The notes below the pieces were generated by a model that did not search any database, was not told the origin of the DNA, and saw only the letters and a program-made list of their open reading frames with translations. Of a stretch of DNA of 64,000 nt, positions 33,995 through 58,335 are shown piece after piece. Origin of the DNA: Cladosporium halotolerans. Lineage: Eukaryota. The position numbers and the translations under genes were made by a program. The stretch covers positions 310,001-374,000 of the forward strand of contig NW_027191466.1 in assembly GCF_011745625.1 (NCBI RefSeq), given 5' to 3'. Position 1 is the first letter of the stretch. Every line of letters starts with the position of its first letter.

Positions 33995-35718
33995 ATGAAG
34001 GTCTCTGCTATCTCGTTGGCGCTCTGCCCTTTGGCTACTCTCGCATACCCGGAGGTGGCACGTCTCCAGGCTCGTGACAATGGCTCCGAAGCCTACCACA
34101 CCGACCTCTTCGAAGGCACTCGTTTGAAGGAGGACCAATCCACCCTCAATGCCTCTCAATTGACCTACACCCAACAAAATGGTCGAACCTGGTTCCAGCC
34201 CCAGGGTGCTCAGAGAGCCGGAGCGTCCGGCCCTCTTCTTCTGCAAGATTGGCACCTGCTCGACACGATGGCTACGTTCAATCGTGAACGCATCCCGGAG
34301 CGAGTCGTCCATGCTCGAGGTGCTGGCGCACACGGATACTTCGAGGTGACTGGCGACTACGCGTCGAAGTACTCGGCTGCAGATGTCTTCAAGCCCGGCA
34401 CCAAGACGTCGATCACCATGCGTTTCAGCACGGTGGGTGGCGCCAGGGGTTCTGCCGATACAGCTCGGGATCCTCGCGGTTTCTCCATCAAGATGAGGAC
34501 GAAGAAGGGTATTCTTGACTGGTACGTCTTGATTGATCGATTCAATTTGACGAAGCACAATCGCTAACATCGATGTAGGGTCTTCAACAGTACGTTCAAT
34601 GGAACGATACCAGAAGCATTCACAGACGCTAACATTCTATAGACACTCCCGTTTTCTTCATTCGCGATCCGCTGAAGTTCCCTCGCTTCATCCACACCCA
34701 GAAGACCGACCCTGCCACGAATGCTCGTGACTGGAACACTTTCTGGGCATGGCCCGCTCAGTTCCCTGAAGCCATGCTGCAGTTCCTTCGTCTCCTCTCC
34801 GATCTCGGAACACCCTACGGCTTCCAGCACATGCACGGCTGGTCTGGCCACACATACAAGTTGGTTCAGGACGATGGAAGCTGGGTGTACACTCGTGTGA
34901 AGCTGGAGTCCGAGCAGGGCGTTCGCAACTTCACCGACGCCGAGGCCAAGAAGCAGGCGGGAGAGAACGACGCATGGGCCACCAAGTATCTCTACGACTC
35001 CATTGAGAAGGGTGACTACCCGGCATGGAAGGTCTCATTCGCCACCATGACCGAAGAGGAGGCTGCAAACTACCGCTATGATATTCTCGACTTGACCAAG
35101 GACTGGCTCAATGTCACCTACCACGACGTGGGGCGAATGGTCCTTACGCAAAACCCTGAGAACTACCATTCCGAAATTGAGCAGGCTCACTTCAGCCCTG
35201 CCAACATGGTGGAAGGTTGGGAGCCTTCGAACGACCCGGTGCTGCAGTCGCGTCTGTTCGCCTACAACGACGCTGCTCGTCACCGCATTGGTGTCAACTA
35301 CCAGCAGATCCCCGTGAACTGCCCCTTCTCGTCCGTCGCCAACTTCGACCGCGACGGTCACTTGTCTGTGCACGGCAACCAGGGCTCGCGCCAGAACTTC
35401 CCCGACGAATACCGCGACAAGCTGAACGTCGTGGAGAAGCCCAAGACTGTGACCGAGCCAAAGATCGAGGGCAACCTTACCTACTACGAGAGCCAGATCG
35501 AGGGTGACATCGATTACGAGCAGCCGAGGGAATTCTACCAGGTGCAGCTCAGCCAAGGCGATCGCGACAACCTTCACAGCAACATTGCGGGCACGCTGGT
35601 CAATGTTGACAACGATGACATCCGCGAGACTCTGCTGGAGCAGTTCGGCAAAGTGGATGCGGCGCTTGAGCGTGGCGTCCGGGAGGCGTACCAGAAGGCT
35701 TTGGCGGCTGCGAGCTAA
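33995..35718 (+). CDS. Monofunctional heme catalase (small-subunit length, 537 aa) with N-terminal signal peptide; exons 33995-34521, 34579-34589, 34643-35718
   Basis: [17 protein letters not shown] (distal His), [40 protein letters not shown] (proximal Tyr); [17 protein letters not shown] signal peptide. Confidence 0.93.
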
Positions 35719-54764: not shown

Positions 54765-56558
54765 TCATGAAAACTCCCTGAGCAGGCTAGTCATCATGTC
54801 CTGGACACCTTGAACACCTTCTTTCTTCATAGCGCAGACAGGCACAGCACGAACTTTTTTCTTCCACGCATTTGGCTTCCCGCTGGGATGCTCCTCAATA
54901 CCATCCTGGATTTTCGCCAGGTAAGCCTGCAGGGCCTGGAAGTTCTCTTGCGTCTCCGGTTTGTCTGCCTTTGTCGCGATAACCATCCAAGGCTTAGAGG
55001 AGATGGGCGGCAGGGCTAGCGGCGGCAAAGACTGGCCAGGCAGAGGCTGGAGCAGAGTATCTTCCTGCGGCGCTGAAACACCATGCACTTTGTCGGCAGA
55101 GTCTGGCTCAAACTCAGAAAATCCGGGAGACCATGTCACCTTGCCTTCTTCGTTCGGGACATGTCTCCGTTCAGTCGCCTCGGCAATCTCTCTGTCACGG
55201 ATGCCTTGGTATTCACCCACTTCGTTCCACAGACCCTTCAGTGTCTGTATAGAATCGCCCGCGCTCAAGTCCACGATAAAAGCTAGCACGCCCGCGCGCT
55301 CGATGTGTCGTAGGAAGCCCAAGCCGAGCCCACGGTCCAAATGTGCGTCTTCAATCAAGCCGGGGTTGTCAGCGATGGTGAAATTCGTTCGTAGCTCGCC
55401 AGTAGGATAGTAAAGCGGGTTCTCCAAGCGACCGCGCTGGTTGTCGAGTACGACAGTGCCAATGTTGGGCGCAAGTGTGGTGAAGGCCCAGTCGCCGATA
55501 CGAGCGCGGCTACTGGTCAGCGCACGCAGCAGTGTGCTCTTGCCAGCATTGGGAAGCCCAACCAGACCGACATCTGCAAGAAGCTTGAGTTCGAGCTGGA
55601 GCGCGATTCGTGTTCCACCATCGCCTTTGGTCGCGTACTTGGGCTTTGGCTTCGACGGAGTCACGAAATGAGTGTTTCCCAGTCCTCCACTCGCGCCAGC
55701 TATGAGCAGCATCGGCACCTCCATAGGCTTGTTGAGATCTAGACGAATCGGTCCCCGGGGCTCCGACATGGCGAGTGTACTGCGGCGGGGCTTAGGGAGT
55801 CTAGGAAAATCTTCCGCAGTGTAGTGGTGAGGCTGCGCAGCGGGATGCAGCAGCCATTTTTCTCGCTTGTGAGTCCGCTGGTGCTCTGCAGCCTCCGCGG
55901 CCTCGGTGTCGTCGGGGTCTTCTGTTTCCATAGAATACCGCCTACTCCGTCTCAGCTCCGCTTCCTCTTCCGCTACAGGATCATGGCGCGAAATCTCTCG
56001 TAGTACCGTTCCCACAGGCACCGTCAGCAAAACGTCCTCCCCTCTTTTCCCTCCTTTTGCCGAACCTTGTCCGTTTCTTCCTCGATCCGCTTTTATGATC
56101 CCTCGTCGAGCCAACTTATGCAAGCTCGTCTCGCCACGGATGGCTTGAATGTAGACCGATCCTCCAGTTCCTCCGTCTCCCCCATTGGGCGGACCGTCCG
56201 CGATGTATTTCTCTCTTAAGAAGGAGATGCAGCCGTGACCACCATTCCCAGCGGCGAGAGTAAGAGCGCACGCGTCTGTGAACGGTGTTTCGCGATAGTC
56301 CGCAGGCTGCGGGTTCAGGTGGTCGTATTGGGTCACATCTCTTGCAGGTCCGGTCGGAGGTGGCTGCGTAGTCGCTTCAGACGGAACCGATGTGGTAGTC
56401 TGCCATCTCCGATCCGGATGTCTGTTACCGGCGGCTCGAGTGCGAGTGTTTCTGGCGAGGCGCGTGGCCGCGGCGGACCATGAACTATCGAGGTATGGGT
56501 ATAGGAACGGTGTAAGGGTGCTTGACAGCAGGCGCGAATGGCCTAGTGCCGAAGACAT
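54765..56558 (-). CDS. MTG2: Mitochondrial Obg-family GTPase
   Basis: Presequence-like N-terminus, Obg glycine-rich domain (GNGGHGCISFLREK, GPPNGGDGGTGG), LELKLLADVGLVGLPNAGKST, FTTLAP, DNPGLI, GLGFLRHIER, TKAD. Confidence 0.92.
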   Translation of the reverse strand: MSSALGHSRLLSSTLTPFLYPYLDSSWSAAATRLARNTRTRAAGNRHPDRRWQTTTSVPSEATTQPPPTGPARDVTQYDHLNPQPADYRETPFTDACALTLAAGNGGHGCISFLREKYIADGPPNGGDGGTGGSVYIQAIRGETSLHKLARRGIIKADRGRNGQGSAKGGKRGEDVLLTVPVGTVLREISRHDPVAEEEAELRRSRRYSMETEDPDDTEAAEAAEHQRTHKREKWLLHPAAQPHHYTAEDFPRLPKPRRSTLAMSEPRGPIRLDLNKPMEVPMLLIAGASGGLGNTHFVTPSKPKPKYATKGDGGTRIALQLELKLLADVGLVGLPNAGKSTLLRALTSSRARIGDWAFTTLAPNIGTVVLDNQRGRLENPLYYPTGELRTNFTIADNPGLIEDAHLDRGLGLGFLRHIERAGVLAFIVDLSAGDSIQTLKGLWNEVGEYQGIRDREIAEATERRHVPNEEGKVTWSPGFSEFEPDSADKVHGVSAPQEDTLLQPLPGQSLPPLALPPISSKPWMVIATKADKPETQENFQALQAYLAKIQDGIEEHPSGKPNAWKKKVRAVPVCAMKKEGVQGVQDMMTSLLREFS

Positions 56559-57067
56559 GCGAGTAATTGCGCAATAGAGAGGATAGATTATCCCTGGTGG
56601 TTGCCACAGAATGTCCTGCTGCTAGGAATGATTGATGATGTCTATGTCGGCCATCCCACGAACTTCTCCGCGCTCTTCAGCGGAGATCATCTCAGGCATC
56701 GAGGTGGCACCGCCGAGATCAGCACAGGCGTGTTCTTTAGATGCATTCCATTCGCTCTTGTGCGGTGTAGACTATCGAGGCTAAAGACTAGTAAGATATT
56801 AGCGAGTGCGCCGGTTTAAATGGCCTGAATACTTCTGCACGTATACACCTAGGTACGAGCCTCAAAGCCAGGTGCCGAGGCTTCTGCCCACCTGGCACCG
56901 GCCGTTGCGCTTCCGGTGCGCGGTCTCCCAGGGCCCTTAACGGCTCTCATGCCGACTACAAAGAAGTGAATAGATCTCACATCGAGACTAGGTTCCATTG
57001 CAACTTCCAGGCGATCTTCGGTACTTCTCTTTGCGGCCCACATCTCTGCCTGAGACAACATTCCAAG

Positions 57068-58335
57068 ATGGCTGCTCTGATCAGGAACGTGGTCTTAAAC
57101 CCCCTCGTCACAGGACCTTTGCTCATCCTGTTTACCGTTGGCCCTCAGCAAGTACGAGAACCGATTTTGGAGAGTCTCAAATCTTACTCATACTATCGAC
57201 CTGTTGAGCGTGGCCTTCTTGCTCTCAAGTGGCTCTTCGGACTTGGTCTTGCTGGCTCTGTGCATGGCTTCCTCTCCGAGCTTGGTCAGAACAACTTTCG
57301 ACTAAGGTCGGAAAAGCACAGATATGACTGGCCGAATGAGATTGCTGTAGTCACTGGGGCTGCGAGTGGCTTTGGTAGACTGATCAGCGAAGGGCTCGCT
57401 GCAAAGGGCATCCGAGTGATGGCCCTCGATCTCCACGATTCGCTGCCAGCAGACATGCCGCCAAACGAGAAGATCAACTATTACAAGTGCGACATTACTT
57501 CCGCAGAGGCTGTGAACGCTGTTGCCGACGCGATCAGGTCAGATTACGGCAACCCTAGCATTTTGGTCAACAATGCCGGCATCGCATTCGATACAAGTAT
57601 TATGGCTACATCGCCTGAAAAGTTGCGCCGGATCTTCGATGTCAACACACTTTCTCATTACTTCACGGTTCAAGCGCTCCTACCCTCCATGGTGAAGCAG
57701 CGCAAAGGCCATATCGTCACTATGGCCTCCATGGCTTCGTTCCTATCCGGCCCGGTGAGTTAATAGTGATCAACCCTGATGTTGTAATTCGCTGACATAT
57801 GACGCAGTATGTTGTTTCCTTCTTTAGTCGTTGAAGTCATGACCCGTTTCCATCCAAAGCACCAAATGAAACTTGGACCACATGCTGACAAGACTTACCG
57901 CAATAGAGGCATGGTGCACTACTGCATGACCAAGTCGGCGGCTCTCACTTTCCACGAAGGTCTTGCAGCCGAGCTGCGCACCAACAGACTTGGCTTTGCA
58001 GCACCCGAGATTAAGCTCACTTGCGTACACCCTACGTGGGCCGCGACTCCCATGATCGCACCGCACCGCAGCAACATCGACAAGACAGGCATGACAGTCA
58101 TCGACCCGCAGCTCGTAGCGGATGCCGTTGTGAATCAGATTTTGAGTGGACGTGGCAGACAGATCTTGCTCTCTGGAGGAATGGATTTCCTTTCGACCAT
58201 GAGAGCATGGCCGTCCTGGATTACTGGTGGTATCGGCGCGGTTCTGTGTGAGTAGCCTCCACCCCGTTACGTTCGTGTGCCAAATAGAGGCCGAATTTGC
58301 TAATCGAGTACCTTCCAGCTTATTTTGACAATTGA
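57068..58335 (+). CDS. Membrane-anchored short-chain dehydrogenase/reductase; exons 57068-57753, 57907-58247, 58319-58335 (first intervening sequence is a stwintron)
   Basis: TGAASGFG, LVNNAG, TMASMAS, YCMTK (YxxxK), VHPTW. The last exon is inferred from intron 58248-58318 (GTGAGT...GCTAAT...CAG) and is less certain. Confidence 0.86.
57754..57906 (+). other. [D1,2] spliceosomal twin intron (stwintron)
   Basis: G|GTGAGT...GCTGAC...CAG|TATGT...GCTGAC...TAG. Removing the inner intron 57755-57807 rebuilds donor GTATGT; removing the outer intron gives in-frame SGP-GMVHYCMTK. Confidence 0.85.

Follow-up and report, generated by a model that had tools for sequence, protein, structure and literature searches.

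The SDR gene on the forward strand of the analysed Cladosporium halotolerans DNA (contig NW_027191466.1; the whole stretch of 64 kb is referred to below as the window) carries a genuine [D1,2] stwintron, i.e., an intron nested inside the splice donor of another intron, and this stwintron is conserved in a clade of Dothideomycetes. The 153 nt at positions 57754-57906, with GG..AG ends, are completely removed from the mRNA, as seen in the transcript contigs described below, and this removal very probably proceeds by two consecutive U2 splicing reactions, of which the inner one comes first. A functional mRNA is obtained by the [D1,2] route only.

The host gene consists of three exons (Table 1), which in the in-silico spliced model encode a protein of 347 aa. 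The Pfam search recognized PF00106 (adh_short) in the product of exon 1 (E 1e-29, residues 92-226), and exon 2 searched alone against Pfam gave no match. As judged by eye, exon 1 encodes an N-terminal hydrophobic stretch, VTGAASGFG, NNAG and the region of the catalytic Ser, and exon 2 holds the catalytic Tyr and Lys (YCMTK) of the spliced protein; we take VTGAASGFG to be a cofactor motif of the TGxxxGxG type, and NNAG and Ser..YxxxK to be the other SDR motifs. On these grounds, the gene product belongs to the classical SDRs (PF00106); it is predicted to be membrane-anchored and retinol-dehydrogenase-like. Upstream of the SDR gene, a single-exon open frame of ~597 aa from the first Met is located on the opposite strand (54768-56558, minus strand); it contains Obg/GTP-binding-like motifs, and its ATG lies ~500 nt from the SDR ATG.

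Table 1. Parts of the SDR gene with its stwintron, and the neighbouring intron of two distant homologues.
Feature	Position	Strand	Description and evidence
Exon 1 of the SDR gene	57068..57753	+	Begins with the ATG and ends with CC, two thirds of the Pro codon; frame, ATG, RNA
Whole [D1,2] stwintron	57754..57906	+	153 nt, GGT start, TAG end; RNA joint, search model A
G1, split donor of the external intron	57754..57754	+	G in 6/6 aligned sequences; removed from mRNA
Internal intron	57755..57807	+	53 nt; GTGAGT..GCTGAC..CAG; elements also in L001-L005
External intron remainder	57808..57906	+	100 nt including G57754; GTATGT after joining..GCTGAC..TAG
Exon 2	57907..58247	+	First base A completes Pro (CC+A), then GMVHYCMTK; RNA, collinearity
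Ordinary intron 2	58248..58318	+	71 nt, phase 1, GTGAGT..GCTAAT..CAG; RNA depth, X10 contig end
Exon 3	58319..58335	+	(S)YFDN, stop TGA 58333-58335; in-silico model, X10 contig end
Neighbouring intron in L008 and L009	L008:1394-1447, L009:2850-2903		Ordinary, phase 2

Read on the plus strand, positions 57754-57906 within the SDR gene have the form G/GTGAGT..GCTGAC..CAG/TATGT..GCTGAC..TAG. The inner donor GTGAGT (57755-57760) is followed by the branch element GCTGAC (57791-57796), whose branch A at 57795 lies 12 nt ahead of the 3' end of the internal intron, and by the acceptor CAG (57805-57807). Directly thereafter, TATGT (57808-57812) completes in silico the external donor GTATGT once the inner intron is out; the outer branch element GCTGAC (57884-57889) places its branch A (57888) 18 nt ahead of the 3' end, where the acceptor TAG occupies 57904-57906. 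All coordinates of the original prediction, which had set an inner intron at 57755-57807 within an outer one of 100 nt, proved exact to the base in the letters of the window.

The unspliced frame is open from the ATG at 57068 to the Pro codon CCG ending at 57754, in which G57754 resembles the third base, and then runs through GTGAGT into TAA; the unspliced model accordingly stops after two codons. The first full codon downstream starts at 57908, which makes A57907 a third codon position. Translation of four splice models agreed with what had been predicted for each form of splicing. With the nested junction, CC and A give Pro and the frame stays open (..MASMASFLSGP-GMVHYCMTK..) with YxxxK in frame; a single splice from 57755 to 57906 shifts the frame after Pro (..SGPRHGALL.., 264 aa), and removal of the inner intron alone yields YVVSFFSR, followed by TGA as the ninth codon, where a TGA within nine codons had been foreseen. 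The canonical spacing between Ser and Tyr in SDRs is 13 residues, and a distance of 13 residues, counted by eye, is found with the nested junction only.

A search of sequencing runs gave 24, and four of these (X1, X2, X9 and X10) were aligned to the window, all as assembled contigs (Logan). X9 and X10 are metatranscriptome RNA on record and belong to one study (P5); X2 (study P2) is RNA by guess, so that the certain RNA evidence comes from one study, and X1 is labelled as probably DNA. X9, X10 and X2 each have one contig that joins position 57753 to 57907 by a skip of 153 nt with GG..AG ends, and the two sides of the joint share zero letters, which makes its position unambiguous. The predicted mature junction GGCCC-AGGCATG is thus present in three RNA contigs, which represent two genotypes and come from two studies. 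Their starts lie at 57010-57018, approximately 50-58 nt ahead of the ATG, and they are 95-99% alike to the window, with SNPs that sort X9/X10 and X2 into the two genotypes; in view of this degree of likeness, they originate from close relatives and not from the sequenced strain itself. The contigs of X9, X10 and X2 are also without intron 2, as mRNAs would be: depth over 58274-58322 is absent in all three and present in the DNA-like X1. Past 58245, the X10 contig continues as 58319 onward with one mismatch in the first 21 letters (by eye), and this contig end supports exon 3 and the splicing of intron 2 for a near relative. The joint 57754/57808 occurred in none of the contigs of the four runs, a form of data that drops rare species and cannot exclude the intermediate.

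The joint also disposes of the ordinary introns that can be drawn at this place. Within 57700-57960, 32 single GT/GC..AG introns keep the frame open, the best-looking of them adding or deleting residues between the catalytic Ser and Tyr. None of the 32 yields 57753/57907, and therefore no single GT..AG intron explains the joint. Introns 57755-57892 (which adds TYRNR), 57755-57859, 57759-57908 and 57739-57906 are excluded both by the RNA joint and by the collinearity of homologues; the AG at 57892, part of an AAG (57890-57892) that is unused as an acceptor, is in addition too close to the outer branch A, only 4 nt past it. A micro-exon at the SDR site was likewise rejected, as no in-phase GT was seen by eye between the inner acceptor and the in-frame TGA, and the RNA joint and the gap-free alignment with homologues also exclude it.

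Search with the protein of exon 1 led to Dothideomycete SDRs, of which the closest named matches were those of Polychaeton citri (69% identity, with 79% of the query covered) and Cladosporium fusiforme (68%). For five of the metagenomic relatives whose truncated protein calls are discussed below (L001-L005, 59-69% protein identity), DNA was obtained by scanning metagenome contigs; all five have at the same codon the arrangement CCG/GT[AGT]AGT..CT[AG]AC..[CT]AG/TA[CT]GT..CT[AG]AC..CAG/A. The nested signals are thereby kept in 5/5 relatives with an intron at this codon. Their inner CT[AG]AC stands 11-15 nt ahead of [CT]AG, and across the relatives the inner introns measure 53-60 nt and the outer ones 100-124 nt. 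In the alignment of the six sequences, ten splice elements form invariant columns, and the interiors of the introns are diverged and align poorly; in 6/6, TA[CT]GT comes immediately after the inner acceptor. The external G1 is equally invariant (6/6), and four of the five codons ahead of it vary, by eye, at their synonymous third positions. Open frames of 331-348 aa result for L002, L004 and L005 when the nested junction is applied, and the junction model aligns without gaps with 11 of 12 homologues.

The specificity of the nested arrangement was assessed by two kinds of search. Over the 64-kb window, both strands included, our own nested pattern matched the SDR site alone. Search model A, as set out in section 2.1 of PMC9024468, combines 24 donor hexamers, the branch element D-Y-T-R-A-Y and set distance ranges. 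Applied to both strands of the window and of all 80 loci, 704,810 bases in total, it gave seven matches: 57754-57906 of the window exactly, the five homologous sites in L001-L005, and 34521-34642 of the window. The last one (plus strand) is a false positive as a stwintron, being two ordinary introns around an 11-nt micro-exon in a catalase gene, and for this reason the motif of model A alone is not a proof. The catalase micro-exon, apparently GGTCTTCAACA at 34579-34589 (plus strand) between introns 34522-34578 and 34590-34642, is recognized from its being needed to read through a stretch of 17 residues, which we take to be a catalase motif.

Another way to obtain the observed joint would be a single-step excision of all 153 nt, which would then form a GG..AG intron of non-canonical type with idle internal signals. 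This agrees with the fully spliced form being the sole RNA species in the contigs, where it is displayed as one skip. However, the 5' splice site of U2 introns requires GU, rarely GC or AU; a 5' GG stands outside these classes, and we know of no class of 5' splice site to which it would belong. Moreover, one-step removal leaves unexplained why the inner branch element, the YAG and the TA[CT]GT are kept in all six diverged sequences, and among 20000 shuffles that preserved the dinucleotides of the interior and kept the ends fixed, just 6 gave the full nested set of signals. We consequently regard one-step excision as very unlikely.

Still less probable, in our estimate, is a nested splice that uses a different inner acceptor, namely the AG at 57827 or at 57836, which would extend the internal intron to 73 or 82 nt. 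By eye, either choice would produce the same mature junction, since G57754 is then followed by T in both cases. The donors rebuilt in this way, GTCGTT and GTCATG, are however poor and absent among the 24 hexamers of model A, and neither AG is conserved in L001-L005, where YAG/TA[CT]GT is invariant.

The X1 contig is unspliced from before 57000 to 57817 and shares the SNPs of X2, which implies that the GG start and the CAG/TATGT are likewise present in the transcribed lineage; inside the stwintron, the contig differs from the window at 57765, 57775 and 57776 only, with no indel, which rules out an assembly error as the source of the GG at 57754-57755. It is thus scarcely conceivable that the second G is such an error, even if one G fewer would produce a canonical 152-nt phase-2 intron CC/GTGAGT..TAG with the observed junction, or that the locus is a decaying pseudogene or otherwise non-functional: L001-L005 all read CCGGT, run X19 contains all sampled words of the 57754-57906 stretch, the spliced frame is open over its whole length with the catalytic motif intact, and RNA libraries contain the gene.

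The preferred reading, two consecutive reactions, would run as follows. The U2 spliceosome would first remove the 53-nt internal intron, by which G57754 would be joined to TATGT and the new donor GTATGT created; ordinary splicing would then excise the 100-nt external intron through its GCTGAC and the acceptor TAG ending at 57906, and the final joining of CC to A would restore both the Pro codon and the reading frame that leads into the catalytic YxxxK. That the internal intron leaves first, in a separate step, and that an intermediate exists is what we infer. According to PMC8469720, a [D1,2] stwintron starts with 5'-GGU, the first G being G1 of the external intron, and produces a frameshift if the internal splice sites are ignored. 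The SDR site starts with 5'-GGU, contains a complete internal U2 intron and allows the external donor to be rebuilt in silico; furthermore, the first G is missing from the mature mRNA, removal in one step from GT shifts the frame, and search model A matches.

The two constituent introns of the SDR site overlap by one G (G57807), as do those of the [D1,2]/[A2,3] dual stwintrons (PMC5587772, PMC8469720). G57807 together with TATGT forms a native donor too, and the 100 nt at 57807-57906 could go first, which would end in a frameshifted dead end. According to PMC8469720, [A2,3] excision needs G as the first exonic base. At the SDR site, unlike in the dual stwintrons, this base is not G: it is A at 57907 and in L001-L005, i.e., in 6/6 sequences, though any base would give Pro, which may reflect constraint or chance. 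Because of this A, the [A2,3] order of excision is unavailable; the swapped order rebuilds no acceptor and shifts the frame.

Stwintrons of the [D1,2] type in Pezizomycotina have been described by Flipphi, Fekete, Ag, Scazzocchio, Karaffa et al. (PMC9024468, PMC8469720, PMC5639578, PMC5587772, PMC12403724), and the comparisons made here refer to the accessible portions of these papers. The statement of the original prediction that stwintrons are a described class in Pezizomycotina holds, whereas 'rare' needs to be qualified, as more than 1500 [D1,2] stwintrons, some of them in SDR genes, are listed for Hypoxylaceae (PMC9024468); nearly all described stwintrons are [D1,2] (PMC12403724). The SDR site is like these cases in its GGT start, in a U2 intron splitting the donor between G1 and U2, in distances between the elements that fall within the ranges of the search model, in the conservation of its position among relatives, in the frameshift upon one-step removal, and in that only the splice elements are conserved. 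It is similar to the 'uniquely occurring' group, which is older and conserved in position and in which the authors did not find a conserved secondary structure (PMC9024468). In contrast to the published hosts, which belong to Xylariales and Eurotiales, it occurs in Dothideomycetes near Cladosporium and Polychaeton and in another host gene; besides, RT-PCR or SRA reads served to verify the published cases, while at the SDR site the intermediate is one that we infer.

The sister [D1,2] stwintrons, which are internally symmetrical and proliferate in Hypoxylaceae and Xylariaceae (PMC8469720, PMC12403724), share the architecture of the SDR site, and both occupy a position that is unoccupied in more distant homologues. 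The sister stwintrons, however, possess terminal inverted repeats of 45-55 nt and similar copies in the genome and are species-specific, whereas the SDR stwintron is without repeats and is common to a clade. A search of the six sequences for terminal inverted repeats or a fold gave no signal (z from -0.78 to +0.72 against shuffles), and no similar stwintron copy was found elsewhere in the 64-kb window. It may be mentioned separately that GGUGAGUU at 57754-57761 can pair with AAGACUUACC at 57890-57899 near the 3' end of the stwintron (GGUGAGU/ACUUACC), the latter being a U1-like complement of a donor. As the pairing of GGUGAGUU and AAGACUUACC is absent in L001-L005, it is probably due to chance.

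Hypoxylon stwintrons no-007, no-061 and no-301 are likewise of the [D1,2] type in pfam00106 genes, and no-007 is listed as phase two, the same as the SDR site (PMC9024468). Their hosts are Sordariomycete SDR paralogues of 243-250 aa, in contrast to the 347 aa with an N-terminal extension found here, and the 15-nt flanks listed for no-007 (PMC9024468) showed, by eye, no evident correspondence to the SGP/G site.

From a more general point of view, a relation to recursive splicing at zero-length exons may be considered. Such splicing is characteristic of long introns of Drosophila and vertebrates, and its first step, made at the true exon end, regenerates a 5' splice site. Both processes consist of consecutive steps, the first of which regenerates the 5' splice site; the SDR site differs in that its donor lies one base downstream, with the leftover G joining the next donor, and in that its introns are very short.

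In the literature searched, stwintrons were not linked with this SDR gene, Capnodiales or Cladosporium; a link may be held by supplements or by two papers that reportedly appeared in Fungal Genet Biol in 2013 (Flipphi et al.) and 2015 (Ag et al., on Helminthosporium solani). Accordingly, the suggestion that this instance may be unreported stands for that literature, but for that literature only. In the accessible text of PMC5639578, 'Cladosporium' is absent and 'Capnodiales' occurs for other genes only. The SDR stwintron is a new, transcript-supported and clade-conserved case of a well-described kind, which is no surprise to a specialist.

The expected consequence for gene annotation was encountered in a close relative. 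Protein P0008 of Cladosporium fusiforme (NCBI) contains an insert of 32 residues, which starts with YV exactly at the junction, sits between the catalytic Ser and Tyr, and interrupts an otherwise gap-free alignment. Since an external intron TA[CT]GT.. that was retained would give an insert beginning with YV, P0008 is read as mis-annotated: judging by the sequence, the insert probably represents the external intron, left in place by a gene finder that removed the inner one. The mis-annotation forecast earlier for this gene appears to have materialized in P0008. According to PMC8469720, [D1,2] stwintrons go unrecognised by present annotation software. Prokaryote-style calls from metagenomes cut the protein right after the Pro codon: 22/22 truncated relatives stop shortly after it, all with P and then V. 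These 'PV..' tails were rejected as a proof of nesting, because a plain phase-0 intron gives the same; they only show a GT after the full Pro codon.

The distribution of the stwintron was traced on a maximum-likelihood tree, built quickly from 45 rows. All six sequences with stwintron DNA fall into one clade of 19 rows (SH-aLRT 99), as do 11 rows with either a PV tail or a YV insert and the two spliced forms P0006 and P0031; the sister group (P0023-P0026, support 90) shows no interruption. The more distant L006, L007, L010, L012 and L013 (33-52% identity) are intron-free at the site. L008 and L009 (49% identity) carry an ordinary 52-nt phase-2 intron, GTATGA..CTGAC..TAG, one codon downstream of the stwintron site; it may have been gained independently, or two intron positions may simply lie close together here. 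A single gain at the base of the 19-row clade would be the simplest reading of this pattern. A plain intron at the exact site of the stwintron was found in none of the sequences examined; the inner intron may have been inserted into an older intron, or the stwintron may have arrived whole. In the latter case, a ready-made nested unit might have entered an intron-free SDR site in the ancestor of the Dothideomycete clade that includes relatives of Cladosporium and Polychaeton; we consider this rather unlikely.

If such a gain did occur, gain of the [D1,2] type, documented as active only in Xylariales, operated in Dothideomycetes too, and the position-conserved SDR copy is an old survivor of that process. 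In practical terms, gene finders fail at the SDR site, and therefore orthologue sets, domain annotation and structure prediction are corrupted in the clade; the SDR stwintron is useful as an annotation warning and opens no new question. It provides a clean, transcript-supported case of nested splicing beyond the fungal family that accounts for nearly all catalogued ones, with five diverged relatives that reveal constraint on ten splice elements only, and through its clade-wide distribution it gives research on the origin of introns a single gain that can be dated.
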